Below the pieces are notes generated by a model, which was not told the origin of the DNA, made no database searches, and saw only the letters and a list, made by a program, of their open reading frames with translations. Position numbers and translations under genes: made by a program. Source: an uncultured Gemmatimonadales bacterium (GTDB lineage: Bacteria > Gemmatimonadota > Gemmatimonadetes > Longimicrobiales > Gaopeijiaceae). From it: a stretch of 64,000 nucleotides of DNA. The stretch lies in contig CAWELD010000003.1 in assembly GCA_963809895.1 (NCBI GenBank), positions 1,824,001 to 1,888,000 on the forward strand, read 5' to 3'. This document shows, in pieces, positions 4,847 through 60,781 of this stretch (position 1 is its first letter; the number at the start of each line of letters is the position of its first letter).

Positions 4847-5191
4847 ATGGGCACGAACGACGTCGCGCTGTCGGCGAGCACCCTGAACTTCCTGGTCCTG
4901 AAGGCGCTGCACGGCGGCGCCGAGCATGGATACGGCGTGGCCCGCTGGATCGAGCGCGTCACGGACGACGCGCTGAGCGTGGAAGAGGGCTCGCTCTATC
5001 CGGCGCTGCACCGGATGGAGAAGCAGGGGCTCCTGGAAAGCCGCTGGGGAACGTCGGACAACAATCGACGGGCCAAGTTCTACCGACTCACGGAACGAGG
5101 CCGGACGCGACTGGCGACCGAGCAGGCGAGCTGGGTGGAGTTCGCCGCGGCCATGGCCAAGGTGGCGGCCGCGGGATCGAGCGCGGGGTGA
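4847..5191 (+). CDS. PadR family regulator (acidobacterial ADOP-associated type)
   Basis: HGYGV, EEGSLYPALHRME, NNRRAKFYRLT. Confidence 0.92.
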   Translation: MGTNDVALSASTLNFLVLKALHGGAEHGYGVARWIERVTDDALSVEEGSLYPALHRMEKQGLLESRWGTSDNNRRAKFYRLTERGRTRLATEQASWVEFAAAMAKVAAAGSSAG

Positions 5192-5204
5192 ACGGGAGAC
5201 GACG

Positions 5205-7895
5205 ATGAGCGGAGAGGAACGAGAGGACTGGGGCCGGGACGACCGGCCGCGTCAGGACCCGGAGCGGGACGTCCAGGACGAGATCGCGTTCCACATGGAG
5301 ATGCGGATCCGCGAGAACGTGGCCCGGGGGATGAGCCCGGAGGCTGCACGAGAGGAAGCCGAAGGACGTTTCGGCAATCCCCGGCGCGTCGAACGGGAGA
5401 TGCTGGCCATCGGAGTCCGGGGCGGCTCACCGGTGGGCGCCGCCCGAGGCCCCGAGCTCCTGCGGGAGCTGTCCCGGGCCGTACGCACGCTTCGGCGCAG
5501 ACCCGCCTTCACGGCCGTGACGGTCCTCACCCTGGCGCTGGGCATCGGTGCCGCCACCGCGGTCTTCAGCGTGGCGAACTGGCTCCTCTTTCGCACCGTC
5601 GCCGGCGTGCAGTCCCCGGACTCCCTGGTCACGGTGACGATCGCCACGGAGAGCTCACCCGACGGCGCCTTCTTCTTCGATCACCCCAGCTACGAGGCAT
5701 TCCAGGGCGCGGCGCCCGCGTTGAGCGGGCTCACGGCCTCGCAGGTCACCGAGGCCAACGTCTGGCTCCCGGGCAGCGACCGGCCGCAGCGGATGACCGC
5801 GGCCTACGTGGCACCCGACTTCTCCCGCGTCCTGGGACTCCGTCCGTTGGCCGGCCGCACCTTCACCGCGGAAGACCGGGTCGAGCCCCACGTGACGCTC
5901 ATCAGCGACCACCTGTGGGCGACCCTGTACGGCCGGAATCCGGCGGCGGTGGGGTCGACGCTGACGGTGAACGGATCGGCGGTGACGGTGGTGGGGGTGG
6001 CGCCGGCCGACTTCCGCGGCGTCCAGCTCCTGGGCGACACCGACCTGTGGATCCCGGTGGAGGCCCGCGACGTGGTCCTGGCCTCGGCGCCCGCCGACGT
6101 GCTGTCCAGCGACTGGAACATCTGGAGCCAGATGGTGGGACGACTCGCTCCGGGCGCCACGCTGGAACAGGCGGCCCAGCAACTCACGGCGGTGGCCACG
6201 GGACTGCGAAGCGATGCGGGAGGGTCCCTGCCCACGAAGGCGGTGGCCCGCACGCGCGCGGGCATCGGCCTGACGCCGTGGCAGCGTGGCCAACTCAGCG
6301 AGATCTTCCGGGTGCTGGCGGGCGTGGTGGGGCTCCTGCTGCTGCTGGCGTGCGCCAACGCCGCCAACCTGCTCCTGGCCCGCATCGGAGGACGGGCCGA
6401 CGAGCTGTCCATCCGCCGGGCCATCGGCGCCGGCCACCGCCGCATCGTGCGCCTGTTGGTGACCGAAGCCGGACTCGTGGTCTGCATCGCCGGCGTCGTC
6501 GGTGTGGGGCTCGCCGCCGGCGCCGTGCGCCTCTTTCGGGGGGAGCGCTTGCTCACCTTCATGCCACCGCTGACCGGGACCCGGCTCGACGGCCGCGTCC
6601 TCCTCTTCGCGTTGGCCCTCAGCCTGGCTACGGGGCTGGTCTTCGGCGTGATCCCCTCGCTGCTGGCGAGCCGGCGCCTGGGCACCGTGCTCCGGTCCGG
6701 TGCGCGCAGCGTGAGTCGGCGCGGCCCGAGCCAGGTGCTGGTGATGGCGCAGGTCGCCATCTCGGTGACCCTGGTGGTGGGCGCGGGGCTGCTCCTGAAC
6801 ACGGTGGTCCGCCTCAACCACCAGGAGCTCGGGTTCCGCCCCCAGGGCGTGCTGGAGGCCTCGGTGGACCCGGGATCGCAGGGCTACGAGCCCGCCCGCA
6901 TGCAGTCCTTCTTCCGCGAGCTCCGCACCCGGGCCGCGGCGCTGCCGGGCGTCCAGGCCGCCGGACTGTCCTGGATCCCGGTCCAGGGACGGGACCGCGC
7001 GGGCAACGTCGTGCGACCGGAGGGTCTCGCGCAGGACGACGAGCGCGCAGTTCAGGCCGCGGCGAACCAGATCACCCCCGGCTTCCTCACCGCCGTGGGC
7101 ATCGAGCTGATCGCGGGGCGTGACTTCCGGGGTGACGAGCTGTTCGACGAGCAGGGCGATGTCGTGATCGTGAGCGAGGCCGTGGCCGCCCGCATGTTTC
7201 CCGGAGGCGACGCCCTCGGCCGCATCGTGGATCTGGGGTACCGCGAGCCCGAGCTCCGCGAGATCGTGGGGATCGTGGGCGACGCCCGCGTCAACACGGT
7301 CAAGGACGCGGAGGACGGCCTCGTCTTCCAGCCGCTGGGCGTGCCCTGGAGCCCCACCCGCGCCACGCTGTACGTGCGAGGCCAGGGGGATCGCATGCCC
7401 GACCCCGGCACCCTGCATCGACTTCTCACCGAGCTGGATCCCGCCCTGCCCTTCTACGACATGCAGCCCCTGACCCGGCGCGTCGCCGGCACCCTGACCA
7501 TGGAGCGCGTGCTCGCACGCCTCACGGCGGTCTTCGCCACGCTGGCCCTCGTACTGGCCGCGGTGGGGCTCTACGGGATGATGACCGTCGCCGTCCAGAG
7601 CCGGGTCCGGGAGATGGGGATCCGCCTGGCGCTGGGGGCCCGGCCGCAGCAGGTCCGGCACATGGTCCTGCGCCGTGGTCTCCTCCTCACCGTCGCAGGC
7701 GTGGCGGTGGGGCTGCTGGCTTCGACCCAGGCCACGCGCCTGATCCGGTCGCGGCTCTGGGGCGTGGGTCCGTGGGATCCCGTGGTGTTCGGCGCCGCCG
7801 CCCTGGTGCTGCTGGCCACGGCCGTGGTGGCGTGCTGGATCCCGGCGGCCCGCGCCACCCGGGTGGACGCCGTGGCGACGCTGACGGAGGAGTAG
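5205..7895 (+). CDS. ADOP duplicated ABC permease with prefix-domain-1-type N terminus
   Basis: DEIAFHMEMR..RFG prefix; TLALGIGAATAVFS, ACANAANLLLAR, REMGIRLALGA; two MacB_PCD+FtsX units. Confidence 0.93.
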   Translation: MSGEEREDWGRDDRPRQDPERDVQDEIAFHMEMRIRENVARGMSPEAAREEAEGRFGNPRRVEREMLAIGVRGGSPVGAARGPELLRELSRAVRTLRRRPAFTAVTVLTLALGIGAATAVFSVANWLLFRTVAGVQSPDSLVTVTIATESSPDGAFFFDHPSYEAFQGAAPALSGLTASQVTEANVWLPGSDRPQRMTAAYVAPDFSRVLGLRPLAGRTFTAEDRVEPHVTLISDHLWATLYGRNPAAVGSTLTVNGSAVTVVGVAPADFRGVQLLGDTDLWIPVEARDVVLASAPADVLSSDWNIWSQMVGRLAPGATLEQAAQQLTAVATGLRSDAGGSLPTKAVARTRAGIGLTPWQRGQLSEIFRVLAGVVGLLLLLACANAANLLLARIGGRADELSIRRAIGAGHRRIVRLLVTEAGLVVCIAGVVGVGLAAGAVRLFRGERLLTFMPPLTGTRLDGRVLLFALALSLATGLVFGVIPSLLASRRLGTVLRSGARSVSRRGPSQVLVMAQVAISVTLVVGAGLLLNTVVRLNHQELGFRPQGVLEASVDPGSQGYEPARMQSFFRELRTRAAALPGVQAAGLSWIPVQGRDRAGNVVRPEGLAQDDERAVQAAANQITPGFLTAVGIELIAGRDFRGDELFDEQGDVVIVSEAVAARMFPGGDALGRIVDLGYREPELREIVGIVGDARVNTVKDAEDGLVFQPLGVPWSPTRATLYVRGQGDRMPDPGTLHRLLTELDPALPFYDMQPLTRRVAGTLTMERVLARLTAVFATLALVLAAVGLYGMMTVAVQSRVREMGIRLALGARPQQVRHMVLRRGLLLTVAGVAVGLLASTQATRLIRSRLWGVGPWDPVVFGAAALVLLATAVVACWIPAARATRVDAVATLTEE

Positions 7896-19142: not shown

Positions 19143-19202
19143 TTGACACCACCGTAGCCGTGGGGTATGCTCGCTGTGATCATATAATCATTCCGATCAT
19201 AT
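19143..19202 (+). promoter_or_regulatory. PadR module promoter and putative operator
   Basis: TTGACA-N17-TATGCT; imperfect palindrome ATATAATC-ATTCC-GATCATAT. Confidence 0.65.
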
Positions 19203-19218: not shown

Positions 19219-19608
19219 ATGTCCTCGTCCAATGATTCTCCCCCGGTGGAATTCCACCTCCCCCTGAAGCCCAAGGACTACCATCTGTTGGCCGCTCTGT
19301 GCACCGGCCCCCTCCACGGCTACGGGCTCGTGAAGGCGCTGGAGGAGCAGACGGACGGACTCATTTCGCTGGCTCCGGGCAACCTGTACCGGGTCGTGCG
19401 GCGGTTGGAGCGGGACGGCCTGGTGGAAGCGGCGCCCGATGCGGAGCGTCCCGAGGTCGAGCCGGCTCATGAGCGCGAGGAACAGAGGATCTACTACCGC
19501 GTGACTCCGTTGGGACGGCGCGTCGTCGCGGCCGAGACCGAGCGGATGCGGGCGCTGGTGCGGCAAGCAGACTCGCTGGGCCTTTCCGCGCGGTCTGGAA
19601 GCGGGTGA
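19219..19608 (+). CDS. PadR family regulator (alternative start 19201)
   Basis: PLKPKDYHLLAAL, LHGYGL, PGNLYRVVRRL, RIYYRVT. Confidence 0.9.
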   Translation: MSSSNDSPPVEFHLPLKPKDYHLLAALCTGPLHGYGLVKALEEQTDGLISLAPGNLYRVVRRLERDGLVEAAPDAERPEVEPAHEREEQRIYYRVTPLGRRVVAAETERMRALVRQADSLGLSARSGSG

Positions 19609-19649: not shown

Positions 19650-22353
19650 ATGATGGGCGAAGGCTTCTATCGCCGGCTTCTCGTCCTGTGGCCCCGCAGC
19701 TTCCGGCGACGCTACGGGAACGAGGCCGTCGAGATCTTCCGGCAACGGATGGACGAAGCTCGGCGGCGCGGCACCTTCACCCGAATCCGGGCGTGGAGCG
19801 TGCTCCTCTTCGACGTGCTGGCCACGGCCGTGAGCGCCCGTCTGGAGAGGAGCGCGCGGCCGAGTCGGGGCTATCGTGCCGGCGCCCCCCTGGCCGTCCT
19901 CCAGGATGTCCGACTCTCGCTGCGCGGAATGCGACGCCGACCGGGGCTCGCAATGGTGCTCATCCTCACGCTCGCCTTCGGGATCGCCGGGAGCACCACG
20001 GTCTTCGCACTCGCCGAGTGGATGCTCCTGCGGCCGGTGCCCGGAGTTCGGGATCCCGCTCGGCTGGTACGCGTCGGCGTAGGCCCGGCGAACGACGCGC
20101 GCATCGAAGGCATCCCGGTGTCGTATCCCCTTTCCGACCCGGACTTCACCGACCTTCGACGAGGCGCTCACACCCTCGCGGGGCTGGCCGGCTTCTTCAC
20201 CGAAGAGGCCAACGTCTCCACCACCACCTCCCTGCCCCGACGGGTGTCGGCGGCCGTTGTAACCGCGAACTACTTCGACGTGCTCGGCGTGACACCGGCG
20301 CGGGGTCGGACCTTCGTGGCTGCGGATGGCCGCACCGGACGAGGTGGACGCGGTGGTCCTGCTGGCGCCTGACCTCGCCGCGGCGATGTTTCCGAGTGCC
20401 GATCCGGTGGGCCGAAGGATCCTGGTGAACGGCCGACCCTTCACCGTGGTGGGGGTCACGCCGGACGGCTTTCACGGCCACGACCTGCCGGGCGAGACAC
20501 GCATGTGGCTGCCTCCGTCCGCCACCCGCGTGCTGGCGCCGTACGTTCCTTCGCGATGGCCCGACCTGCGGGAGCAGATGCTCTGGCAGGTCGTGGGCCG
20601 CCTCGCGCCTGGAGCCGACGTGGCGGGAGCCGCCCTCGATCTCTCCACGGTGGCCCGTCGCATCGCCGAGGCACATCCGGGCGAGACGATGTTCGGGGAC
20701 CGTCAGGTGCCTACGGTCTCCGGTGGTGTCGGCGCGTCCCCGGCGCTCGAGGCGCGGTTGAGCCGGGCGCTCGGGCGATTGGGGATCGGGGCGTTGATCC
20801 TGCTGCTCCTCGCGGTGGCCAACGCAGGAGGCCTGCTGGTGGCGCGGGCCGCGATGCGAGAGCGGGACGTCGTCATTCGGCGAGCTCTCGGCGCCAGCCG
20901 CGGAGCAATCGTCCAACGCACGGTGATCGAATCACTGTTGGTGGCCGGCCTGGCCGGAGCCGTCGCGCTGGCGCTGACCAAGCTCGCGCTCGTCGGGATC
21001 GAGGGATTGCGGCTGCTCCAGTTCGGCGCGGCCGTGGAAGGCGCACGGCTCGACGCACGTGTGGCACTCTTTGCCGCAGTGGTGTCGGCGGCCGCCGGGC
21101 TGCTGACCGCCGTCGCGCCGTCCATGTTGGCGGCTCGCGAACGGGACCTGAGCCAGACGCGCGCGGGGGCTCCCCGCCAAGGGCTGCGCCGCGGGCTGGT
21201 GATCGTCCAGGTGGCGCTGTCGGTGGGGCTCTCGGTCGGAGCGGCCCTCATGGGCCGGACCGTGACGAAACTGAGTGCGGTGGACCCCGGCGTGAACATC
21301 GACGACGTGCTGTCCTTCCGAGTGGCGCCGGGGCTGCAACAGGACTGGGCCCCCGATGGCGAACAGTTCTTCCTGGCCCAGGTCCACTCGGCACTCGCCA
21401 CGCTACCCGGCGCACGCGCCGTCGCGTTCTCCTGGCCCGCGCCCTTTGCACTGCAGTTCGCCCGGGCCACCGTCCGCCGACCGGACGAGCCCTGGGACAA
21501 TGCGGTGCAGGTTCGCAGCTTTCGTGTCTCGCCGGATTTCTTCGAGACTGTGGAGTTGGGCAGCAGGCAGGGACCGCTACCCTCCACGAGCTCCTCCGAA
21601 GGCGATGCCTCCGGGGAACCCGGCATCGTCGTCTCCCGTCGGATGGCGAGGCTGCTGTTCCCCGACGAGGACCCCCTGGGCCGGGCGGTGGAGCTTCGGG
21701 GCGTCCGTGGTGAACGCCGGGTGGCCGCGGTGGTGGAGGACATGCGGGTAGGGAGCCCAAGGGACGCCCCGGCTCCGATCCTGTTCGAGCCGCTCGGGCA
21801 GCGGAGGGCCACCGGCGACTACACGGTCCTCGTGCGTACGACCGGCGATCCGAAGGCGCTGGTGCCGGCGATTCGCCGAACGCTCCGGGAGGTCGCCCCG
21901 GCCCTCCCGATGTTCGACGTGCAGACACTCCGGGAGCGGGTCCGCCGCACCATTGCGGAGGAACGGACGCTGGCCGGTGTGGGCGCGGCCCTGGCAGCCC
22001 TCGGCGTATTGATGACCGGCCTGGCGATCTTCGGCATCCTGGAGTGGGCGGTGGCGACACGGGAACGGGAGATCGGGGTCCGCATGGCGCTCGGTGCGCA
22101 AGCCCGGCGAGTCGTCGGACATGTCGCCGCGCAGGCGCTGGCGATGATCGGTGTCGGAGCGATCGTTGGCCTGCCTCTGGCGTGGGTCCTGGCGAGAGCC
22201 CTGCGATCCCAACTCTTCGACGTGACCCCCTGGGATCCCATCGCCTGGTGCGGAAGCGCCGTCGTGCTCCTTGCCGTCGCCGCGCTCGCTGCCGTTCGCC
22301 CGGCCCACCGCGCCACGCGAGCGGACCCCGCCGAGGCGTTACGCGCGGAGTAG
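19650..22353 (+). CDS. ADOP duplicated permease; one frameshift near 20328
   Basis: Prefix LWPRSFRRRYGNE; ORFs 19605-20372 and 20326-22353 join if one G in GATGGCC is removed; ends ALRAE. Confidence 0.85.
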
Positions 22354-38759: not shown

Positions 38760-39092
38760 TCAGCGCCCGTCGTCGGCCAGCACCGCCTGCACCGCGCCCG
38801 ACAACTCGTTGAAGCGCGCCGACTGCGTGGCCAGGTGCGCGGTCCCGGCCTCGGTCATGCGGTAGAACTTCGCCCGCCGGCCCGTGTCGGTCCGGTCCCA
38901 TTCGGACACCAGCAGTCCCTGCCGCTTGAGTCGGTGGAGCGCCGGGTAGAGCACCCCTTCCTCGACGTCCAGCACCCCATCCGACGTGTCCCGGATCTCG
39001 CGGCCGATGGCGTATCCGTGCTTGGGTCCGGCCCGCAGGGTGCGGAGGATCAACAGGTCCAGGGTGCCGCTGAAGAGATCGCTACCGCCCAT
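38760..39092 (-). CDS. PadR family regulator (acidobacterial type)
   Basis: GTLDLLILRTL, HGYAI, EEGVLYPALHRL, RRAKFY. Confidence 0.93.
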   Translation of the reverse strand: MGGSDLFSGTLDLLILRTLRAGPKHGYAIGREIRDTSDGVLDVEEGVLYPALHRLKRQGLLVSEWDRTDTGRRAKFYRMTEAGTAHLATQSARFNELSGAVQAVLADDGR

Positions 39093-39129: not shown

Positions 39130-39192
39130 CCCCTAGTTCGACTATGCTTGGTTCGAACCAGTATAACGGGGGATCCCTATCCGGGCTAGGGG
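39130..39192 (-). promoter_or_regulatory. PadR operators and promoter
   Basis: Minus strand CCCCTAG-CCCGG-ATAGGGA and GCATAG-TCGAA-CTAGGGG flank a TATACT box. Confidence 0.6.
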
Positions 39193-39200
39193 TGGGGGTG

Positions 39201-40025: not shown

Positions 40026-42452
40026 GTGAACTCCCTCCTCCGTGACCTGTCGCACGGCATCCGCGTCCTGCGGAAGACTCCGGTCTTCTCGGTGGTGGCG
40101 ATCGTGACTCTGGCGCTGGGGGTCGGCGCCAACGCCGCGATCTTCTCGCTGGCCCGCACCCTGTTGGTCCGGCCCGTCGAGGGCGTTCGGGCCGAGGGCG
40201 TATTCCACGTGACCGCCCGGCGCGCCGATGGCACCACGGACGGCATCTTCTCCTACCAGGACTACATGCGCCTCCGGGCGAGGAGCGCGTCCGCGGAACT
40301 CGCGGCGCACTACTCGTCGGCGCCCCTGACCGACGACTCGGACGCCGGCCGTGAAGTGGCCGGTGCGGCCGTGTCGTCGAACTTCTTTCGGGTGCTGGGC
40401 GTGGAGCCCGCGCGCGGGCGGTTGTTCACGTCTGAGGAGGAAGGTCTCCGGGGCGGCGCGCCCGTGGCCGTGATCAGCGATGCCTTCTGGCGGGAGCGCT
40501 TCGGAGGAGCACCGGATGCCGTCGGAGCGGAGATCCGCCTCAACGGGGTCGTGTTCACGGTGGTCGGCATCGCGCCCCCGTACTTTCACGGCGTCCGGAC
40601 CACCTGGCGCAACGACGTGTGGGTGCCGCTCTCCATGCTGGGCACGGCCTATCGCTGGTGTGATCCTTTCGAGCCCGGATGCGACACGCTGGGCCTGGTG
40701 GGGCGACTGCACGGCGGCGCCACCCTCGAGCAGGCGCGCGCAGAGCTGGCGAGTCTGTCCCCTTCCCTGACCCCGGAAGACGGTGACGATGCCCCCCGGA
40801 CGTTGGAGCTGACAACTCTCGGGGGATTGATGCCCGGCGCGGGCCGAGAGGGCTGGCGCAACAATCTCGTCCTCCTCTTCCTCGCAGGTGGGCTTCTTCT
40901 CGGCGTGGCGTGCGCCAACCTGGCCGGCGCGCTTCTGTCGTCGGGGCTCGCCCGCCGTGGGGAGTTGGCCGTGCGCCTGTCGCTGGGCGCCAGCGCCAGC
41001 CGCATTCGACGGCAGCTCCTCACCGAGAGCCTCATGCTCGCCCTGGCCGGTGCGGGACCCGGAATTCTCGTGGCCGATCGGATCCAGCGCCTCCTGGCCG
41101 CCATGTACGCGGTGGACTCCGAGGGATACGCCATGCCGCTGGACCTGCGCCTGGATCCCACGGTCATCGGATTCGCGGTGGTCCTGGCCCTGGCTACCGG
41201 CATGGTCTTCGGACTGGCGCCGGCCTGGCGCGCCGGCCGCGCCGACCTGAGCCGCACCCTGCACGAGTCCGGCACGCGCTCCACGCGCCGCCCACCTCTC
41301 GTCGGTGCCCTGGCGGCGATCCAGGTCGGGCTCACCCTGGCGGCGCTGGTCGGTGGGGGATTGCTGGCCCGCAGCGCAGCCGGGATCGGGGCGGGTGCCG
41401 GCTTCGATCCCTCGCGCGTGGCGCTCTTCCGCGTACGTCCGCGGCTGATCGGCTACAGCGCGTCGCGCGCCCGGGCCTACACCGCCGAGGTGCTCCGCCA
41501 GCTCGAGGCCACACCCGGCGTGCGTTCTGTCACGTTGGCCGACGGGGTCGGGTTCGTGTGGGGAGACGGCTCTCCCACGCCGACGTGGTCATCGGACGCG
41601 CCACCCGACGACCCCGAGGCCGCCCTCCGCGTGGGTCACAAGGAGGTCGCGCCCCGTTTCTTCGAAACCCTGGACGTGCAGGTCGCCGGACGCGAGTTCG
41701 GATCCGGAGACGAGCCCACCTCGGAGCCCGTGGCCGTAGTGGACCGGACCCTGGCCCGGCAGCTCTGGCCCGACGGCGCCGTCCTGGGCCGCAGCGTGGT
41801 GGTGGACGGCCGGACGCGTCGCGTGGTGGGAGTCGTGGAAGACATGCACTTCCACAGCGCCACCGAGCCCGCTCGACCCCACGTGTGGACCCCCTACGCA
41901 CAGGACACCACCCAGGTCGATGCCCGCTTCGCCGTTCGGGTAGAGGGCGATCCCACGACTCGCATGCCCGAGCTACTTCAGGTCGTGCGCGGCGTGGATC
42001 CAGCGGTGCCTGTCACGGAGACGCTGGCCCTGGGCGCCCAGGTGCGCGCCGCGTTCCGGTCCGTTCGCGTCATCGCGCTGGCGGTGGCGTACTCGGCGCT
42101 GCTGGCCGTGGTCCTGGCCGGGATCGGCCTCTACGGCATGGTCACGTTCACCGTGGCCAGCCAGCGGCGCGCTCTCGCCGTGCGCAAAGCCCTGGGGGCT
42201 GCCGCCCCGGACATCATCGGCGCGCTGGCTCGGGACATCGGCACGATCCTGCTGGCCGGCACAGGGGTCGGCATCGTCCTGGCCCTGGCACTGGCCCGCA
42301 CGCTGGCGCACCTGGCCTACGGCGTGGCGCCCTGGGATCCCGTCACCCTGGCCCTGGCCGTCACGACGCTGCTGGCGGTGGCGCTCGCGGCCTTCGCCTG
42401 GCCCACGCGCAGAGCGCTGGAGGTGGAGCCCCGGGAGGCGTTGGCGGAATGA
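40026..42452 (+). CDS. ADOP duplicated permease lacking an N-terminal prefix domain
   Basis: Starts NSLLRDLSHGIRVLRK; TLALGVGANAAIFS; ACANLA. Confidence 0.92.
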   Translation: MNSLLRDLSHGIRVLRKTPVFSVVAIVTLALGVGANAAIFSLARTLLVRPVEGVRAEGVFHVTARRADGTTDGIFSYQDYMRLRARSASAELAAHYSSAPLTDDSDAGREVAGAAVSSNFFRVLGVEPARGRLFTSEEEGLRGGAPVAVISDAFWRERFGGAPDAVGAEIRLNGVVFTVVGIAPPYFHGVRTTWRNDVWVPLSMLGTAYRWCDPFEPGCDTLGLVGRLHGGATLEQARAELASLSPSLTPEDGDDAPRTLELTTLGGLMPGAGREGWRNNLVLLFLAGGLLLGVACANLAGALLSSGLARRGELAVRLSLGASASRIRRQLLTESLMLALAGAGPGILVADRIQRLLAAMYAVDSEGYAMPLDLRLDPTVIGFAVVLALATGMVFGLAPAWRAGRADLSRTLHESGTRSTRRPPLVGALAAIQVGLTLAALVGGGLLARSAAGIGAGAGFDPSRVALFRVRPRLIGYSASRARAYTAEVLRQLEATPGVRSVTLADGVGFVWGDGSPTPTWSSDAPPDDPEAALRVGHKEVAPRFFETLDVQVAGREFGSGDEPTSEPVAVVDRTLARQLWPDGAVLGRSVVVDGRTRRVVGVVEDMHFHSATEPARPHVWTPYAQDTTQVDARFAVRVEGDPTTRMPELLQVVRGVDPAVPVTETLALGAQVRAAFRSVRVIALAVAYSALLAVVLAGIGLYGMVTFTVASQRRALAVRKALGAAAPDIIGALARDIGTILLAGTGVGIVLALALARTLAHLAYGVAPWDPVTLALAVTTLLAVALAAFAWPTRRALEVEPREALAE

Positions 42453-42500: not shown

Positions 42501-45173
42501 CTACTCGCTCTTGAGCACCGTCATGGGATCCACCCGCGCGGCGCGGCGGGCCGGGACGTAGCCCGCCAGCAATCCCACGAAACCCACCACCAGGGTCACC
42601 AGCAGATAGGTGAGGGGATCCAGGGTCGGCAGGTCGTACAGGAAGCTCTCGAGCACGCGGGAGCCCGCCAGAGCGATGATCAAGCCGAGCACCAGGCCCC
42701 CGCCGCAGAGCCTCAGCCCCGAGCCCAGCGTGGCCCCTACCACCTCGCCACGGCGCGCCCCCAGCGCCATGCGTAGCGCTACCTCGCGCGTGCGCTGGGA
42801 CGCCGAGAACGCCACCACGCCGTAGACGCCCAGCAGGGCCAGGATCGTCGCCAGACCCGCCAGTCCCACCACGAAGAGGGTGCGGAACCGGGGAAGCGCC
42901 ACCGACCGGGCGATGTGCTCATCCAGGACCATCTGCCACCGCACCGGCGTGGTGGGAGACAGATCGGTCACGATGTCCCGGGCTCTGGCCAGGGCGGCGG
43001 CGGGATCCGCGGAGCGGAGCACCCACTGGGATACCTCCCGGCGGCTTTGCGCGGTCGGCACGTACACCTTGGGCTCCGGCGGTTCTTCGAGGGACTGGTG
43101 GCGGACGTTGCCCACGACACCGACCACGGTCGCCCACTCGTCCTTGTTGTGGCGGACGCGGCGGCCGATGGCGGACTGGCCGGGCCAGTAGGCGTCGGCC
43201 AGCGCCTGGTTCACCACCGCCACCCTGGGTGCGCCCGCCAGATCCTGCTCCTCCAGGCCGCGGCCTCGAAGAACGGGAATCCCCATGACCTCGAGGTAGT
43301 CGGGATAGGCCGCGGTGATGAGGACGTCGACGTCTTCACTCACCACGCCGTCCGCGCCCTCGATGTCGTACGAGGTGTAGGACCATGCGCCCGAGAGGGG
43401 GACTTCGCTGCTGCCGGTGACCTGGACGCCGGGCAGGGCGCGCAGCCGTTCCCGCAACTCGTCGGCGAAGGCCTTGCGAGCCGCCGTCTGCGCCTCGTCC
43501 GTCTCGTACAGGGACACGTCGGTAGAGACCGACATGACGGCGAGCCCCTGGGTGGGGAATCCCCGATCCTCGGTCCACAGGTTCATGTAGCTGCGGCCCA
43601 GGAGTCCCGCCCCCACCAGGAGCGAGAAGGCCAGCGCCACCTCGGCCACCACCAGGATCGAGCGCGCCCGTCCGCCGCCGCTGCCGGCCACGGACCGAGA
43701 GCCCTCGGCCATGGCGCGTCCGGGATCGACCCTCGACGCCCGCAGCGCGGGCAGGATTCCCACTGCCACCGCCGTCGCCGTGGTCACCAGGATCCCGAAC
43801 AGGAGCACGGCCGGATCCATGGTCACGTGATCGGCCCGCGGAAGCGACGGCGGCAGCGCAGCCACCAGCGCCGGCAGGGCGACGCCCGCCAGGACGAGCC
43901 CCGTCAGCCCACCCAGGAGCGCGAGGCCCGCGCTCTCGAGCAGGAGTGCCCGGACCAGTCGGCCGCGCTCGGCACCCAGGGCCGCGCGCACGGCGAGCTC
44001 ACGCCGGCGCCCGAGGCTCGTGACGCTCAGCATGTTGGCGATGTTCACGCAGGCGATGGCCAGGACGAAGCCCACCGCCCCCAACAGGAACCACAACGTC
44101 GTGCGCACGGCGCCCACCTCGGAGTCCAGCAGGCCTTCGACGTTGGCCCCGTAGTCCTTCTGCGCGTCGGGGTACGACGCGGACAGGCGGTCCTGGAGCG
44201 CCTCCAGATCAGCCTCCAGTGAGGCGACGGTAGCGCCCGGCTTCAGCCGGCCGATGGCGGTGAAGGACTGGTTGTCGCGCACGTCGGTCTTCCGGTCTTC
44301 GGGCAAGGAGGTCCAGATCTCGACGTTCTCGTGTCTCGGCACCGCGAAGCTCGCCGGCATGACACCGATGACCGTGGTCTGCTCGCCGTCCAGGTCGAGG
44401 GTCGTGCCGAGCACCTCCGCCTCGCCCCCCAGGCGCTCCTGCCAGAAACCGTGACTCAGCACCGCGACGCCCGGCGCTCCCGGCTGGTCGTCGTCCGCGA
44501 CCAGGGTTCGCCCCAGCGCCGCCGGCACCTCCAGGGCGTCGAATACCCCGTGCGTGAGGATCAACGCCTCCACCGTCTCCGCCCGCTCCGGACCCTGCCA
44601 GGTGCGCGTGTCCTGCGCTACGATCCCCACGGACTCGAAGCCCGTGGTCGCCGCCTGCCAATCGTTGAAAGTCGGCACCGACAGCGGCATCCGCTCAGCG
44701 AAGCTGCGGAACATCTTGCTGGGGTGACCCATCCACTCCGGATGGGTCTGCCAGGCCGCCACCAGCCGGTCGGGCTCGGGAAAGTCCAGAGGCCGCAGCA
44801 GGACCCCGTTCACCACGCTGAACACCGCCGTGGTCACCCCCACCGCCACGGCCACCGTGGCCGACACGGCGAGGCTCACCGCCGGCCGGTGGCGCACGCT
44901 CCGGAGCACGCCCCGCAGGTCGGATCCCCATCCTCCGCTCATGGTCGCTCCTCCTCCCCCCGTTTCCACATGTGCCACCCGTCGTAGCTCGAACGGCCGA
45001 ATCCACAGGGTCTGACGCCACATCCAGGCATCGGCGGCGAGCCGTCCAGTCTCGCGTCGCCGCTGGGCGTAGCGCTCGCGCAGATCACCCTCCACCGCCT
45101 CCAGGAGCTCGGCCGGAACCAGCCGCCGGAGCAGCCACACCGCAAGGCGGGGCGGATGCGGTGGACCCGTCAC
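42501..45173 (-). CDS. ADOP duplicated permease with prefix-domain-2-type N terminus
   Basis: GTG start overlapping the PadR stop (GTGA); PPRLAVWLL...EGDLRE; IACVNIANML; ends DPMTVLKSE. Confidence 0.92.
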   Translation of the reverse strand: MTGPPHPPRLAVWLLRRLVPAELLEAVEGDLRERYAQRRRETGRLAADAWMWRQTLWIRPFELRRVAHVETGGGGATMSGGWGSDLRGVLRSVRHRPAVSLAVSATVAVAVGVTTAVFSVVNGVLLRPLDFPEPDRLVAAWQTHPEWMGHPSKMFRSFAERMPLSVPTFNDWQAATTGFESVGIVAQDTRTWQGPERAETVEALILTHGVFDALEVPAALGRTLVADDDQPGAPGVAVLSHGFWQERLGGEAEVLGTTLDLDGEQTTVIGVMPASFAVPRHENVEIWTSLPEDRKTDVRDNQSFTAIGRLKPGATVASLEADLEALQDRLSASYPDAQKDYGANVEGLLDSEVGAVRTTLWFLLGAVGFVLAIACVNIANMLSVTSLGRRRELAVRAALGAERGRLVRALLLESAGLALLGGLTGLVLAGVALPALVAALPPSLPRADHVTMDPAVLLFGILVTTATAVAVGILPALRASRVDPGRAMAEGSRSVAGSGGGRARSILVVAEVALAFSLLVGAGLLGRSYMNLWTEDRGFPTQGLAVMSVSTDVSLYETDEAQTAARKAFADELRERLRALPGVQVTGSSEVPLSGAWSYTSYDIEGADGVVSEDVDVLITAAYPDYLEVMGIPVLRGRGLEEQDLAGAPRVAVVNQALADAYWPGQSAIGRRVRHNKDEWATVVGVVGNVRHQSLEEPPEPKVYVPTAQSRREVSQWVLRSADPAAALARARDIVTDLSPTTPVRWQMVLDEHIARSVALPRFRTLFVVGLAGLATILALLGVYGVVAFSASQRTREVALRMALGARRGEVVGATLGSGLRLCGGGLVLGLIIALAGSRVLESFLYDLPTLDPLTYLLVTLVVGFVGLLAGYVPARRAARVDPMTVLKSE

Positions 45174-45529
45174 GATCCGTCGCGCGCCACCGAACCCGCG
45201 GCGTCCTCCAGATCCCCCTCCAGCCCGTCCCACATGGACAGGAGCCGCCGACGCGACTCGTCCAACGCCGCCATCCCCTCCGGCTCCACCGAGAAGTAGC
45301 GCCGCGCCCTCCCCCCGCGCTCGTCGGTGGGCTCCCCCATCCACGAGCGCACCATCCCCTTCTTCTCCAGGCGGGTCAGGGTGATGTAGATGGCGCTGAT
45401 GGAGGCTTCCCGGTCCGCCGTCTGATCGAGCTCCTCCTGAATGCGCGCGCCGTAGGCGTCCTCGCCCAGCCGCATGACGGCGAGCAGCGCCATCTGCTCG
45501 AACTCCCCCAGGTGATCGGTCTTGGCCAC
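45170..45529 (-). CDS. PadR family regulator
   Basis: LGEFEQMALLAV, AIYITLTRLE, RGGRARRYF. Confidence 0.92.
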   Translation of the reverse strand: MAKTDHLGEFEQMALLAVMRLGEDAYGARIQEELDQTADREASISAIYITLTRLEKKGMVRSWMGEPTDERGGRARRYFSVEPEGMAALDESRRRLLSMWDGLEGDLEDAAGSVARDGS

Positions 45530-45542: not shown

Positions 45543-45574
45543 GTTTCACAATGTTAAGGTTAACAATGTGAAAC
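45543..45574. promoter_or_regulatory. 32-bp palindromic putative PadR operator
   Basis: GTTTCACAATGTTAA-GG-TTAACAATGTGAAAC, one mismatch. Confidence 0.75.
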
Positions 45575-45616
45575 ATGCGGGCGGAGGACGGGGCGGTCAA
45601 GCAGGGGGGATTGGCG

Positions 45617-46252: not shown

Positions 46253-46258
46253 GGTATC

Positions 46259-51903: not shown

Positions 51904-52278
51904 ATGTCCGACGACGAGATTCCCCTGACGCCCCTTACCATGGCCCTCCTCCTGGCACTGGCCGGAGGCGATAGCCACGGTTACGCCCTCATGCAGGAGG
52001 TGGAGCGTCAGACCGACGGGCGCCTCAAGCCGGGAACGGGCAGCCTCTATGCGGCCCTGCAGCGGCTCATGGACGACGGGATGATCGAGGAGTCGCCGGA
52101 CCGACCGGGTCCGGGCGAGGACCGGCGCCGCAAGTACTTCCGGATCACCGCCGCGGGCTGGGCCATGGCTCGCCGGGAGGCGGAGCGGATGCTCCAGGTG
52201 GTGGCGGCGGCGAGGGAGCGGAGAATCCTGCAGGAGCCACCGCCCGGGTTGATCACGGACCCGACGGGGCGGACGTGA
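51904..52278 (+). CDS. PadR family regulator
   Basis: PLTPLTMALLLALA, HGYAL, GSLYAALQRL, RRRKYFRIT. Confidence 0.92.
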   Translation: MSDDEIPLTPLTMALLLALAGGDSHGYALMQEVERQTDGRLKPGTGSLYAALQRLMDDGMIEESPDRPGPGEDRRRKYFRITAAGWAMARREAERMLQVVAAARERRILQEPPPGLITDPTGRT

Positions 52279-55048
52279 CGGAGTCTTCGGGGCGGCCCGG
52301 CAAACGGGACACCGACCGTCGGGACCGACTGGGGCCGGCTCCCGCCCCGGAGCCGGAGTCGAGCAGGCTCTACCGGCTGTTGGCAGCGCTGCTACTGCCG
52401 GGGGGATTCCGGGCCAGCCACGGAGGGTCCATGGAGGAGACCTTCCTGCGGTCGCTCGAGCATGCACGGAGGGTTGGGGGGCGGTGGGGCGTGACGCTGC
52501 GCTGGGCCAAGGAGCTGGTGGACCTGGCGCGGACGGGTGTGAGGCTGAGGATGCCGGGGCGGGGGTCACTTCGCGACGCCGGGAGCGACGTGGACTCGGG
52601 GCATAAAGGGAGGGGGCATGGAGCGCACGCTGGGCGGGTGGGCACGGGGTGGATGGGATGAGGCACGGTTCGCCGTCAGGGGGCTGGTGAGGAACCCGAC
52701 CTTCTCGCTCTTCGCGGCGGGGACACTGGCGTTGGGCGTGGGGTCGTCCACCACCGTCTTCAGCGCGCTGGAGGGAGTGGTGCTGAACCCCCTGCCCTTC
52801 GCGGGCGCCGACCGGATGGTGACGGTGTGGCGGTCGACCGCCGGAGGTCGCGGCTTCCTAGCGCCCCACCTGGCACAGGCCCAGGCGTGGCGAGAGATGA
52901 AGGACGTATTCGAGGACCTGCACGCGTACCGAGCTGGAGGTGCCACCCTCACCGGGCTCGGCGACCCGGTCCAGGTACGACACTTCCGGGCCGATGAGGG
53001 GCTGTTCGGGTTCCTGGGCTACGAGCCGATTCTGGGCCGGACCTTCACCCACGACGAGCACGCGGGCCAGGGAGCCCGGGTGGCGGTGATCTCCGAGGGC
53101 CTCTGGAAGCGGCGTTTCGGGGCCCGGCGCGATGTCCTGGGGACCGCTCTCACCCTGAACGGGGAGCCGTGGACCGTCGTGGGCGTGGTGCCGGAGATCC
53201 CGGACCCCACCGCGGCCATCCTCCCGGTACAGGTGTGGTCGCCCCTGGGCACAGGGGCGGCGGTGACGAACATCTCGACGGTGGGGCGGCTGGAAGAGGG
53301 CGTCACTACGGCGGAAGCGGACGCCCGCCTGGAGGCGTACGCGGAAGGAGCGGCGAGCGCGGCCGGCGACGATCCCTCGGAGTGGGCCGCCCGGGCCATG
53401 CTGGTGGCCGAGTTCGGGCGGGACGGTATCGCCGCCACGCTCCGAAGCCTCATGGCCGCGGCGGTGATCCTCCTCCTGATCGCCTGCGTGAACGTAGCGA
53501 ACCTGTTGCTGCACCGGGCCGTCCGTGTGCGTCGGGAGACGGCTGTGCGAGCCGCGTTGGGGGCCAGCCGCGGGCGGTTGCTGCGCCAAGCCCTGGGGGA
53601 GAGCCTTCTGCTGGGCCTGGCCGGATGCGCGGCAGGGACGGGGTTGGCGTGGATCTCGCTCCGGGCGATCGAAGCCCTCCGTCCCACCCAGATGCGGATG
53701 CTGGATGGGCTCACCCTGAACGCGACGGTCCTCGGCTTCGCCCTGGGTGCGTCGGTCGCGGCGGGGCTCCTCTTCGGCGCACTCCCCGCCCTTCGGCTCG
53801 CGCGCCGCGACTGGGCCGCGGGCGTGGGAGGCGCCTCCTGGGCCGGAAGGGATGGCTCGGATGGACGTCGCGCCCGCTGGGCGTTTGTCGCTGCCGAGAT
53901 CGGCCTGTCCTTCGCGCTGGTGGTCGGAGCTGGGGTGGTGGTGGGGTCGCTCCGGGACATTCAGGCCCGGGACCCCGGGTTCCGAGCGGCGGGCCTTCTC
54001 TCGGTTTCGGTCAGCCTACCCTCCTGGCGCTACCAGGAGGCGGCGGGGAGGGAGGCCGCCTTCGGGTCCATGCTCGACAAGGTCCGCCGGCTCCCAGGAG
54101 TCCAGACAGCCGTGCTGGGCTCGGCGCTCCCGCCGAATCTCGGCGCCCTCTTCGGACGGCTCCAGGTGGAGGGACAGCCCGCCGACGAGGAGAGCGCGTT
54201 CATACGCGCCGGCCAGTACGGTCCGGGTATCCTGCACCTTCTGGGACAACCGCTCCTGGCAGGCCGGGACCTGGAGTCGGGCGACGCCGAAGACGGAACC
54301 AACCCCATCATCGTGGGCCAGACCCTGGCCACGCGGCTCTTCCCTGGCGCGTCGCCTGAAGAGGTGGTGGGACGCCGCTTCCGCACCTCACCGGACGAGG
54401 AATTCCAGACCATCGTGGGCGTGGCTGGCGACATTCGCACCTACCTCCCCGCCACGGAGCGCGACGCCGTAGCCTACTTCCCTCGCGCCGCCACGTACAA
54501 CCAGATGACGCTGGCATTGCGCCTCGCCCCCGGCGCGGCGGCCCCAGACCCCGCGACGCTCCGTTCCCTGATCCGCGAGGTCGAGCCTGACGCCCTGGTC
54601 GAGACCAGCACGGCCAGCCGCATGCTCGCAGAGACGGCGGGAAGGGAGCGCTTCACGACCGCGCTTCTTTCGGCCTTTACCCTGCTGGCGCTCGCGCTGT
54701 CGGCCGTGGGCCTCTACGGCGTCCTCTCTCAGGCCGTCGGCGAACGAACCCGGGAAATCGGAATACGCATGTCCCTGGGGGCCGACGCCAGCAAGATCCG
54801 GGGGATGGTCCTTCGAGGAGGGGCCGCAGCCACCCTGACCGGGCTCGTCGTGGGTGTCGTCGTCGTTCTCGTGGGGATGCGCGTCGCGGCGAGCTGGCTG
54901 GCAGGCCTCACGGGCATCGACGAGACCGGGTGGACCTCCTGGCTCACGGCCGCCCTGGTGGTCTCCGGCGTCTCTCTCCTGGCCACCTGGGTCCCGGCCC
55001 GGCGAGCCATCCGGACCGACCCGGCCCGCGCCATGCGAGGCAGAGTGA
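52275..55048 (+). CDS. ADOP duplicated permease; frameshifts near 52615 and 55039 (uncorrected ORFs 52275-52661 and 52618-55104)
   Basis: Prefix LLPGGFRASHGGSMEE; IACVNVANLLL; REIGIRMSLGA; removing one G gives the MRAE-stop ending. Confidence 0.85.
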
Positions 55049-55061
55049 GCGGCCCGAACGG

Positions 55062-55218
55062 GCCTCGAGCGCGACATCGATGCCGATCTTCTTCCGGTAC
55101 TTGAAGAGGTCGGCGATAGTCTTCGCGATCGAGTAGACACGGACCTCGACGCCCTCCACCTCGTGGACCTCCTGACCTTCTTCGAACGCAGGTCCCGTGA
55201 ACCAGACGAACTCCATGG
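55062..55218 (-). pseudogene. abiEi: Internal abiEi fragment (duplicate of 56700-56856)
   Basis: 157 bp with two synonymous differences from the intact gene. Confidence 0.85.
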
Positions 55219-57256: not shown

Positions 57257-57273
57257 GCCGCAAGCGGCAGCCC

Positions 57274-57822: not shown

Positions 57823-58155
57823 TCAGCTGACCGGCGCGTCCCCCAGCAGGTCGCGGCCACGGGCGTAGCGCACGACGGCGTCCAGGCGCAGCAACTCCTC
57901 GCGCAGCGCTTGCCGTCCCGCGCCCGCCAGCACGTAGAAGCGCCGGGGCGGGCCTCCGGACACGGGCTCGTCGATGGGGGCGTCGACCTCGTCGATCAAT
58001 CCCTGCTCCACCAGGCGGTGGACGGCCTCGTACAGGGTGCCGGAGCCCAGCACGACCTGCCCCTCGGTGCGCTCCTCGACGGACTGTTTGATGCCGTAGC
58101 CGTGCAGCGGCCCATCGGCGAGGGCGAGGAGGATCTGGAGCGTCCGGGTCGTCAT
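57823..58155 (-). CDS. PadR family regulator (downstream of its ADOP)
   Basis: LQILLALADGPLHGYGI, SGTLYEAVHRL, RRFY. Confidence 0.92.
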   Translation of the reverse strand: MTTRTLQILLALADGPLHGYGIKQSVEERTEGQVVLGSGTLYEAVHRLVEQGLIDEVDAPIDEPVSGGPPRRFYVLAGAGRQALREELLRLDAVVRYARGRDLLGDAPVS

Positions 58156-58159
58156 GCGT

Positions 58160-60781
58160 TCATCCTTCCTCTCGGAGCGCATCCACCGGGTCGATGCGGG
58201 CGGCCCGTTCTGCCGGTACCCATGCAGCCAACACGCCGGAGCCGAGCACCACGGCCGCCACAGCAACGTACGACACCACGTCCCGAGGCGTCACGTACGC
58301 CAGCACGTCCGTCATCGCGCGGGACGCCAGCGCCGCACCCGCCAGTCCCAGCACGATGCCGATGCCCACTGTCGCGCCGGTGCGCGCCACCACATCCCCC
58401 ACCACCCTGGCGCGGCGCGCACCCAGCGCCATGCGGATACCGATCTCCCGGGTACGGGCCCGTGTGGCGTACGCCGTGGTGCCGTACACGCCCACGATGG
58501 CCAGCAGGAGCGCGATCATCGCGAAGGCGCCGAAGAGCCCGGTGTAGAAGCGCGCCCGGGCGCGGCCGTCGGCGGCGAGGCTCTCCACCGTCGCGATGCT
58601 GGTGACGGGAAGCGCAGGATCGATGCGGTGCACCAGAGCCCGGATCGCCGGCGCCAACGCCGCGGCGTCGCCATCGGTCCGGAGCATCAGGTCCATGCTG
58701 CTCCACGGCACGTCCTGGAGCGGGACCATGATCTCCGGCGGCGTCTCCTCACCGACCGTGGTGCGCACGTCCGCCAGGACACCCACGACCTCGTAGTTGG
58801 CCTCGTCGTCGATGCCCTTTCCGCCGGACCTCACGTGCTTGCCGAGGCCCGACTCCCCGGGCCAGTACTTGCGCACGAAGGCCTCGTTGACCACCGCCAC
58901 GGGGGCGGTTCCGTCATCGGTGGGTCCGAAAGCCCGGCCCTCCACCATCCGCGTGCCCACCGTGCGCACGTAGTCCCCACCCACGACGAGCATGGTGATG
59001 AGGTCGCCCTCTTCGTCGGCCGCCGCAGCCTGCCCGGCCGGCGGCTCGGGGCGGTACGTGGAGCTGATGCGCGTGCCGCTGTACGGCGCCTGGATGGCCA
59101 CGCCAACGGAGGTAACGCCGGGGATCGATGCCGCGTCGTCCATGATCCGCTGCCACATCCCCACCCACTCGTCCTTCCCGAAGCGGGGCTTCAGGTCGAG
59201 GCGGGCGCTGGCCAACCCCTCCGGTCGGAAGCCGGGGTCCTCGTGGGCGAGCCGAACCAGGTCGTGGGCCAGGAGTGCGGAGCCCACGGCGAGCACCACC
59301 GCCAGCCCGGTCTCGACGATGACCAACGTCCCGCGCAGGCGCCCCTCGCTGCGGCTTGCCGTGCCGCGCCGTGTGAGCGTCTCCACGCCGGGGACCGTGG
59401 CCGCCGTGCTGCGCAGCGCGGGAAGGAGGCCGAACAGGATGACGGTGCCCATCGCCACCGCGAGGGAGAACGCCAGGCCGCGGCCGTCCACGGCCACCTC
59501 GACCAGCCGAGGCAGCCCTTCCGGCGCGTGGCTACGGAAGAGCGTCACCGCGCCCCACGCCAGGAGCGCGCCGAGGGCTCCTCCGCCGGCGGCGATGAGG
59601 CCACTCTCGGCCAGGAGCTGGCGCACCAGGCGTCCGCGCCCGGCGCCCAGGGCGACGCGCACCGAGAGCTCACGGGCGCGCTGCGCCCCTCGCGTGAGGA
59701 GCAGGCTCGCCACGTTCACGCAGGCGATGAGCAGCAGGAGCGCGACGGCGGCCATCACCCGGTCGAGGGTCGACCCGATCTTGCCCACCACCTGAGTACG
59801 GTAGTCGGCCACCGACCCCCCGATGACGAAGTTCGGCCCGTCGCTCCCGTACACGTCCGTCACCGCCTGGTCGATCCACGCGTCGAGCTCGGCGAGGGTG
59901 CGTCCCGGGCGCGCCCGCGTCACGCCGACGAGAAAGAAGCTGCGTGTGTGCGCCGAGGCGGTGATGGGAAGAGGCACCCAGAGATCCCCGTCGTGGATCA
60001 GTTCGGGGGGCGGCACGAAGTCCCGGGCGAGCACGCCGATGATGGTGTACGGCTCGTCCCCCATCCGGAGCGTGCGGCCCACCACGCCCGGGTCCGCGCC
60101 GAAGCGGTCGCGCCAGAAGCCGTCGCCCAGGACCACCACCTTCTCCGCACCCGGGTCGTACTCCGCATCCACCGGAAAGCGCCCCAGCCCGGCGCGAGCG
60201 CCGAAGAAGGAGAAGAAGCCGCGGGTCACCTGCATCACCGCGTGCCGCTCGAGCCCGTCTCCGAAGTGGAGCACTTTGGCCGTGGGCGAGGCGGCGACCA
60301 CCCCCTCCGCCGGCCCGAGGCCCTGCTGCAGGCGGACCATGAGCCCGTCGCTCAGCGGGCCCACGCCCTCCGGGTCGTTGCGGGCCTGGATGCCGACGCG
60401 CGCCATGCGCTCCGAGCCCGGATACGGGAGCGGCCGGAGCACCACCCGGTCCAGCACGCTGAACACCGCCGTGGTGGCGCCGACCCCCAGCGCCAGGGTG
60501 AGCACCGCGAACAGCGTGAAGGAAGGCGCGCGCCTGAGCACCCGCGCACCGCTTCCCAGATCCGCCAGCAGCTTCCTCATCCTCCTGTCCCCTCCCCCGC
60601 GCCGCACCGCGGCGGCCGCGCGCAAGTGATCGATCACCAGGCGCGGCCAGTAGCCCACGCCTCCCTCCCCCGAGGCCCGGGCCTCACGGTGGAACGCCTC
60701 CATCTCGGACCCATAGCGGTCCCGATACGCCCGAGGGTACAGGCGGACGAGCCAGCGGAAGAGTCGGGAACGGGGCGCCAT
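58160..60781 (-). CDS. ADOP duplicated permease
   Basis: Prefix LYPRAYRDRYGSEM; TLALGVGATTAVFS; IACVNVASLLL; REIGIRMALGA. Confidence 0.93.
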   Translation of the reverse strand: MAPRSRLFRWLVRLYPRAYRDRYGSEMEAFHREARASGEGGVGYWPRLVIDHLRAAAAVRRGGGDRRMRKLLADLGSGARVLRRAPSFTLFAVLTLALGVGATTAVFSVLDRVVLRPLPYPGSERMARVGIQARNDPEGVGPLSDGLMVRLQQGLGPAEGVVAASPTAKVLHFGDGLERHAVMQVTRGFFSFFGARAGLGRFPVDAEYDPGAEKVVVLGDGFWRDRFGADPGVVGRTLRMGDEPYTIIGVLARDFVPPPELIHDGDLWVPLPITASAHTRSFFLVGVTRARPGRTLAELDAWIDQAVTDVYGSDGPNFVIGGSVADYRTQVVGKIGSTLDRVMAAVALLLLIACVNVASLLLTRGAQRARELSVRVALGAGRGRLVRQLLAESGLIAAGGGALGALLAWGAVTLFRSHAPEGLPRLVEVAVDGRGLAFSLAVAMGTVILFGLLPALRSTAATVPGVETLTRRGTASRSEGRLRGTLVIVETGLAVVLAVGSALLAHDLVRLAHEDPGFRPEGLASARLDLKPRFGKDEWVGMWQRIMDDAASIPGVTSVGVAIQAPYSGTRISSTYRPEPPAGQAAAADEEGDLITMLVVGGDYVRTVGTRMVEGRAFGPTDDGTAPVAVVNEAFVRKYWPGESGLGKHVRSGGKGIDDEANYEVVGVLADVRTTVGEETPPEIMVPLQDVPWSSMDLMLRTDGDAAALAPAIRALVHRIDPALPVTSIATVESLAADGRARARFYTGLFGAFAMIALLLAIVGVYGTTAYATRARTREIGIRMALGARRARVVGDVVARTGATVGIGIVLGLAGAALASRAMTDVLAYVTPRDVVSYVAVAAVVLGSGVLAAWVPAERAARIDPVDALREEG

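Follow-up and report, generated by a model that had tools for sequence, protein, structure and literature searches.

PadR regulators and membrane-protein tags fall into four matched classes and are likely to form many separately wired membrane-to-gene switches in a Gemmatimonadales genome

The stretch of 64,000 nucleotides analyzed here (the window) spans positions 1,824,001 to 1,888,000 of contig CAWELD010000003.1 from an uncultured Gemmatimonadales bacterium (GCA_963809895.1). It carries seven genes for PadR regulators, each next to a gene for a membrane protein, in most cases an ADOP permease, that begins with an N-terminal domain, which we call the tag. Tags and PadRs each fall into four classes, A to D, and across the genome the class of the tag was that of its PadR in every pair found (95/95). 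The roughly 100 PadR units are likely to be many separately wired membrane-to-gene switches, and on balance we think it probable that they are self-repressed operons relieved by the predicted binding of the tag to the PadR.

Class matching within the genome and beyond it

The genome searched comprises 5.33 Mb and is 95% complete. PF03551 gave 104 matches, and our own PadR profile gave 106; discarding a frameshift fragment and two winged-helix proteins of other kinds left 103 PadRs. ADOP loci longer than 1.8 kb numbered 125, and the 123 with an intact start were analyzed. Tags and PadRs were clustered separately, each by its own sequence, and each gave four groups, which agreed in all 95 pairs (A 28, B 36, C 26, D 5) and left eight PadRs unpaired. 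Two of these pairs lie on a 15.8 kb contig, C1, which may be a duplication or a strain variant contig, and are near-copies of the window's 39092/38752 and 27682/28072 units (genes being named by the window position of their start). An earlier reading of the window, made from its sequence only, had described three classes; the tracking of class and the co-occurrence of tag and PadR hold genome-wide, while the fourth class, D, and the putative operators described below had been overlooked.

The PadR tree shows three class changes, the minimum possible, compared with a mean of 47.1 after shuffling (0/200 shuffles as low). PadRs that lie downstream of their permease match its tag class in 5/5 cases, for which the chance is about 0.003. 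Curated models, which do not depend on our clustering, give 26/27 matches to NF038403 that follow a class A PadR, the remaining one having it downstream, and 15/18 matches to NF038404 that follow a class C PadR, with 3/18 lacking any. Among the 123 ADOPs, 91 have both tag and PadR, two have a tag only, 27 were scored as having neither (one of these has a broken C tag), and three were scored as tag-less beside a PadR, two of which show a B tag by eye. The window conforms to the sequence-only reading in this respect, as every tagged protein adjoins a PadR and the untagged ADOP 40026 has none. PadR and tag are adjacent in 90/95 pairs, often with overlapping stop and start codons, and the permeases of ADOP-PadR pairs alone make up 5.7% of the genome. 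One class C-tagged ADOP (G000:C4:74844) lies behind a class A unit and has a class C-like site (9.8 bits) and no adjacent class C PadR.

Replication made use of profiles built from this genome and of draws selected by class, in which related genomes are not independent of one another. Matching tag classes were found at 53/57 PadRs in ten relatives, at 26/32 in four Acidobacteriota genomes and at 21/22 in a class D draw, and a draw from the tag side matched 23/26 tags; each gave 0 mismatches, the rest having no detected partner. At E 1e-20, class D was present in 5/5 PadR-rich genomes and absent from the hits in 60 class-wide genomes. PadR counts at E 1e-7 span 0 to 95 over 21 related genomes (G000-G020), and the genus by itself covers this whole span of 0 to 95. 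A B tag profile made from this order only gave 66 matches, 65 of them directly behind a B PadR, and after two profile rounds, which are partly circular, the B tag was found at 93/118 B PadRs in nine named phyla. A search with a DNA pattern matching the B recognition helix retrieved 120 genome loci. In metagenome loci the B tag stands beside a B PadR in 102/120 and another tag class in 0. Four of eight B-like PadRs from Bacillota have a different partner, presumably DUF2812-like.

The class A tag corresponds to NCBIfam perm_prefix_1 (NF038403) and the class C tag to perm_prefix_2 (NF038404). Of 68 members of the class B tag, with the motif YPxxW/FRxRYGxE, none matched a family in Pfam or NCBIfam; its 36 database matches are all hypothetical proteins or permeases, and the three Atlas clusters nearest to it are unnamed and mostly from Gemmatimonadota. 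Its partners in long loci (n=70) include six ADOPs and 57 other bodies in 27 unrelated groups, mainly membrane proteins. At least one transmembrane (TM) segment is predicted in 59/64 non-ADOP B partners, and Pfam matches were found in 4/25 scanned non-ADOP B bodies and none on the tag. Further B partners include Wzz-like and TMEM260-like proteins, and in a Chloroflexota genome the B tag is fused to a PP2C phosphatase (L175:597-1589). Four of 19 long records resembled PadR-tag fusions (P0034, P0037, P0041 and P0043) and were set aside as likely frameshift artefacts, each being a single sequence on one contig. In a family of roughly 350-residue proteins (P0001-P0029), three B-like PadR domains stand in tandem and are followed by a hydrophobic segment at the C-terminus.

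Three helices are predicted for both the class A tag (H12-33, H38-49, H52-71; pLDDT 82.5) and the class B tag (H3-13, H17-37, H44-63; pLDDT 77.9). Class A tags carry an invariant G50 between helices 2 and 3 (40 rows), which answers to the GxP-type kink in the third helix of HAAS domains; [FM]G[DNGS] occurs in 19/25 and a strict G-x-P in only 6/25. This kink pattern is found in just 1/36, 0/26 and 1/23 of the B, C and D tags. The HAAS profile PF22564 has five matches in the genome, one above the cut-off and all adjoining cluster A PadRs, and 0/68 B tags match it at E 1. Comparison of class A with B, C and D tags by hhalign gave less than 3%, at which very remote kinship is still possible, while B, C and D align in register with each other (probabilities 31-91%). 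The latter three are basic, with a median net charge of +7 to +9, and amphipathic-looking, and P16 and R20 of the B tag are kept in at least 90% of 136 rows. Fold searches gave generic helical matches only (B best Z 5.4, root-mean-square deviation 4.2, 64 aligned; A best Z 6.8, root-mean-square deviation 7.2); DUF1048 (PDB 2O3L) appeared in neither listing, a test without power. PDB sequence searches with the tags returned designed or unrelated helices only. The nearest solved structures to class B PadRs are the 3f8b/7qz7 series, which we take to be LmrR.

Genome-wide, PadRs and tags agree in class and the permease bodies are mixed. The body tree, built from 103 intact bodies with 21 frameshifted ones left out, shows 33 class changes among 78 tagged rows; by class, the changes versus shuffled values are A 18 vs 19.0, C 19 vs 19.9, B 22 vs 26.7 and D 4 vs 4.0. 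The nearest body has the same class in 33/77 cases (shuffled 23.6, p 0.03), compared with 95/95 for PadRs. Because the bodies mix across classes, PadR and tag move as a module over the permease bodies, a shuffling that the sequence-only reading had anticipated.

Predicted operators and the units of the window

Repeated promoter sites were found in 34/92 PadR units and in 2/28 tag-less ADOPs. Classes A, B and C each give their own 21-base palindrome, with expectation-maximization log-likelihoods of 105, 122 and 98 versus 30-42 in shuffles; class D is too small. Half-sites mirror each other at positions without a class consensus (59/110, 76/135 and 85/154), and this symmetry at low-information positions has p 0.0002 per class under three nulls; each paralog thus has its own palindrome variant. 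Leave-one-out scoring picked the own class for 68/85 promoters, and tag-less ADOP promoters reached 10 bits with the three class motifs in 0, 1 and 0 of 27. In A, B and C alike, similarity between operators is best accounted for by a PadR column at the start of the recognition helix, a ranking without a significance figure. The class B motif overlaps a -10-like element, and sigma-70-like -35 boxes lie near operator-like sites in 15/22, 13/27 and 15/22 promoters (raw counts, without background). We infer that the palindromes are PadR operators, and their variation by paralog supports insulation of the predicted circuits at the DNA level.

Two orphans closest to the same unit (C3:3254396) may be a split cognate pair acting in trans. 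The class C PadR at G000:C10:61115 retains the operator of its closest paralog, and the C-tagged permease at G000:C3:826704 is nearest to this unit in both tag and body; in the promoter of this permease, the sister unit's operator is not the best match. An AT-rich B-like palindrome at about 39927-39965, before ADOP 40026, shares 14/15 bases with the 19219 promoter, its best match. It was discounted as a target in trans because a divergent Phd antitoxin gene lies directly downstream of it.

Table 1. PadR units, ADOP permeases and predicted operator-like sites in the window.
Feature	Position	Strand	Basis
Two class A operator-like palindromes (predicted)	4771-4791, 4806-4826	+	
PadR class A	4847..5191	+	TIGR03433 129.4 bits, above cut-off; cluster A
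ADOP permease, class A tag (perm_prefix_1, HAAS-like)	5205..7895	+	profile match
Class B operator-like palindrome (predicted)	19182..19202	+	17.7 bits
PadR class B	19219..19608	+	PF03551; cluster B
ADOP permease, class B tag; frameshift near 20330-20370 in assembly	19650..22353	+	profile match
Class A operator-like site (predicted)	27606..27626	+	10.9 bits
PadR class A, divergent	27682..28068	+	TIGR03433 92.1 bits, below cut-off; cluster A
Non-ADOP multi-TM protein, class A tag	28072..29469	+	NF038403 41.4 bits
ADOP permease, class A tag	36056..38752	-	weak PF22564 HAAS match, E 0.005
PadR class A	38760..39092	-	TIGR03433 124.1 bits
Class A operator-like site (predicted)	39173..39193	-	11.4 bits
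ADOP permease without tag and without adjacent PadR	40026..42452	+	profile match
ADOP permease, class C tag (perm_prefix_2)	42501..45173	-	NF038404 46 bits
PadR class C (LGEFEQ)	45170..45529	-	PF03551; cluster C
Two ACATTGT class C operator-like sites as inverted pair (predicted)	45544..45576	-	
Two class B operator-like sites (predicted)	51817-51837, 51852-51872	+	
PadR class B	51904..52278	+	PF03551; cluster B
ADOP permease, class B tag; frameshift near 52600 in assembly, separating tag from body	52275..55104	+	
PadR class B, downstream of its permease	57823..58155	-	PF03551; cluster B
ADOP permease, class B tag (residues 1-70; three predicted helices)	58160..60781	-	

The units of the window are listed in Table 1. 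Seven PadRs, seven ADOPs, one other membrane protein and no ATP-binding cassette (ABC) ATPase or membrane fusion protein (MFP) had been reported by the sequence-only reading, and these counts proved right, gene starts included. The tag and PadR motifs that it quoted are present in the translations, and it had correctly bridged the two permeases that frameshifts split in the assembly (19650/20326 and 52275/52618). All seven PadRs match PF03551 above the cut-off. Six ADOPs score 663-811 bits with TIGR03434 (cut-off 622.3 bits), the split 19650/20326 gene gives 113+468 bits in two pieces, and the duplicated MacB_PCD+FtsX body is present. The non-ADOP protein 28072 has 465 residues, seven predicted TM segments and perm_prefix_1. 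Tags of 5205, 28072 and 38752 match NF038403 and that of 45173 matches NF038404, while the class B tags of 19650, 52275 and 60781 gave 0 family matches in an NCBIfam/profile scan of the window proteins. With TIGR03433 (cut-off 101.8 bits), the three class B PadRs reach 50.4, 58.9 and 53.4 bits and the class C PadR 25.2. No contig among the read pieces listed spans the 52600 frameshift; genome-wide, 21/124 ADOPs are frameshifted, which suggests assembly errors.

Other genes lie among the units. A Phd/YefM antitoxin and PIN toxin pair (39201-39922, minus strand) separates ADOP 40026 from PadR 39092, and an AbiEi-AbiEii type IV toxin-antitoxin pair lies at 55660-57298 (minus strand), with AbiEii split over two frames. 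Open reading frames 55440 and 57325, which flank the AbiE pair, have near-identical translations, suggesting a local duplication. No ABC ATPase in the window scored above the cut-off, and a weak ATPase match at 46031-46237 proved to be a Zeta/AAA_33-type protein; this ATPase stands behind a small protein without a Pfam match, a possible toxin-antitoxin pair (45617-46849, minus strand). A Ser/Thr kinase of 1081 residues (24254-27499, minus strand) and a LytTR response regulator (61843-62463, minus strand) are also present.

A derepression model and its alternatives

In the reading that we favor, a PadR dimer would occupy its own palindromic operator, making the unit a self-repressed operon, and the three-helix tag on the neighboring membrane protein would bind the PadR of the same class. 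Once the membrane protein is engaged, the tag would remove the PadR from DNA and so relieve repression. The N-terminus of MacB is cytoplasmic, and by this topology the tag would be as well, in a position for its presumed contact with the PadR. Permeases acting as MacB-type pumps would signal their own load and so increase their own expression. The circuits would be insulated twice, by the four tag classes among the proteins and by the paralog-specific operators on the DNA. The sign of the response, derepression, is taken from Listeria LftS, since this DUF1048/HAAS protein is needed for induction and not for repression. LftS is dispensable for repression (PMC4517056) and required for induction (10.1101/2023.07.27.550809), and PadRs of such kind are autoregulated (PMC6624303).

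Several results weigh against this reading. Permease bodies are partly tied to class, given the p value of 0.03 above, and their tree is poorly resolved, with 44/100 forks open. Linkage alone can move PadR and tag together, and because they are so often adjacent, movement as a module is by itself no proof of contact; beyond linkage, only the five downstream pairs and the cross-phylum retention argue for coupling. Residue covariation across 262 B pairs revealed nothing above shuffled pairings, in a sample that is small for a firm negative. Gaussian direct coupling analysis gave a top z of 5.5 versus 4.1-6.0 in 16 shuffles, pseudo-likelihood gave 6.7 versus 6.3-7.1 in 10 within-cluster shuffles, and the highest-scoring pairs mirror the division into long and short B subfamilies. 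Likeness of PadRs and likeness of tags within a class correlate with rho 0.31 in A, 0.30 in C and 0.01 in B, and because of this last value cognate specificity inside a class is without protein-level support. The many insulated circuits of the sequence-only reading are supported at the level of DNA, through the paralog-specific palindromes, and lack support at the protein level inside a class. A clear repeated site is present in only 34/92 PadR-unit promoters, and operator likeness follows whole-PadR likeness only weakly (rho 0.12, p 0.06 in B; rho 0.15, p 0.03 in C). The sign inferred from LftS may not carry over to the B, C and D tags, since LftS is a stand-alone protein and these tags have no detectable kinship with class A. 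Furthermore, a preprint words the HAAS model as release of a bound PadR, the opposite sign (10.1101/2025.01.14.632903).

It is unlikely, in our estimation, that the tag instead holds the PadR at the membrane at rest, or co-represses with it, until the PadR is freed or changed in shape by a signal or by cleavage of the tag. The genomic evidence is all blind to sign, and besides the release wording just cited, section 28 of PMC11237479 allows for 'release or reconfiguration'. However, the operator-like sites near -35 boxes, counted without background, are placed as for a repressor, repressor release would turn the permease off upon engagement, and induction requires LftS. Distinctly less probable is a scheme in which the PadR itself senses a small ligand, as in LmrR, and the tag serves the membrane protein in anchoring, assembly or ATPase docking, the class match reflecting shared descent. 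The nearest solved structures of class B PadRs and the basic, amphipathic-looking B, C and D tags would suit it, but about 26 ADOPs without a tag are also without a PadR, and the B tag keeps its B PadR on 27 unrelated bodies, mostly not ABC permeases. Finally, we consider it improbable that there is no functional coupling and that a linked cassette, running from the promoter through padR into the 5' part of the following gene, recombines as a block with the tag as a passenger or a means of translational coupling, since, despite the adjacency of 90/95 pairs, their overlapping codons and the swapping of bodies behind the cassette, the downstream PadRs match in 5/5 cases and the tag keeps P16, R20 and its predicted three-helix fold across phyla.

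The derepression reading can be taken further, although only tentatively, and the extended form may well not hold in full. PadRs could have taken up plug-in anti-repressors from two or more unrelated tag superfamilies, one being HAAS and another B/C/D, which is built on an amphipathic helix-Pro-helix core; this would be an alternative to two-component systems that needs no kinase. The B tag could be a cross-phylum adaptor letting almost any membrane protein control a PadR, and the roughly 95 units could be insulated circuits that follow a readable helix-to-operator code and all draw on a single ATPase-adaptor-TolC hub.

The four matched classes provide built-in cognate and non-cognate controls, so the question of binding reduces to a 4x4 experiment. 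As a widespread domain that has no name yet, the B tag allows many hypothetical membrane proteins from Actinomycetota, Chloroflexota and Acidobacteriota to be flagged as likely to be linked to a PadR. The roughly 70 pairs of operator and PadR predicted in this one genome offer natural material for working out a recognition code, and orthogonal repressors might be drawn from them.

Permease function and comparison with known systems

The sequence-only reading had proposed that the orphan permeases act as sensors. This view is weakened: coupling helices are conserved in both halves of the permease (consensus R.rE.avR.ALGA and R.rE.G.R.ALGA in 103 bodies), and an operon in the genome and its relatives encodes TolC-type, MFP and ATPase partners, which makes a transporter role with shared partners more likely. 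The best PDB matches of the permease body are to MacB. The operon (L376, G000:C3:756574-767500) encodes an outer-membrane efflux protein, an MFP, an ATPase, a tag-less ADOP, a second ATPase, a sigma-54 response regulator and a histidine kinase, and its first ATPase has a stand-alone 98% copy elsewhere in the genome. This hub ATPase occurs in 13/20 relatives, each of which has one or two copies; 10/15 loci have an MFP ahead of it, and at three loci the two ATPases are consecutive without an intervening permease. As they differ from each other, the two ATPases might pair as a heterodimer on the fused permeases. At E 1e-75, 5/12 genus genomes gave no match to the hub ATPase, including G001 with its 62 PadRs, which counts against a shared hub. 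The permeases are likely to be pumps that also sense, rather than pure sensors, and those outside the operon likely rely on its ATPase, adaptor and outer-membrane channel as common parts.

The core idea, and class A with it, has been published before: a HAAS-PadR dyad has been proposed with an ADOP example, the tag being a PadR-binding signaling domain (Ravi 2024, PMC11237479). This proposal rests on co-occurrence, and the PadR rows of its supplement for three terms list HAAS as the only partner (PMC11237479). A literature search, mostly of open-access sources, turned up nothing on how the classes pair, on tags B and D, on the operators or on ADOP function.

As in the HAAS-PadR dyad, the units described here set a stand-alone PadR next to a multi-TM protein whose N-terminal domain has three helices, and class A is that dyad. 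They differ in tag classes B, C and D, which have no detectable class A kinship and each have their own PadR clade, and in the presence of roughly 95 paralogous units with paralog-specific predicted operators in one genome. The permeases, the class A PadRs and the A and C tags fall inside the families TIGR03434, TIGR03433, NF038403 and NF038404. In contrast, B, C and D PadRs score below the TIGR03433 cut-off (25-59 bits for those of B and C in the window vs 101.8), tag B has no NCBIfam model, and the pairing of perm_prefix_2 with the LGEFEQ PadR is missing from the model descriptions seen.

Listeria LftR-LftS, which controls LieAB, similarly combines a PadR repressor with an adjacent HAAS-superfamily partner needed for transporter induction. 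However, LftS is a free protein, whereas the tag is fused to a membrane protein and the target would be the unit's own operon. MacAB-TolC, a Type VII ABC system, shares the duplicated MacB_PCD+FtsX body, both coupling helices and a TolC-MFP-ATPase operon; the difference lies in the roughly 124 permeases set against two copies of the hub ATPase. BceAB-BceRS is a flux-sensing system, and here the read-out would go to a PadR and not to a histidine kinase.

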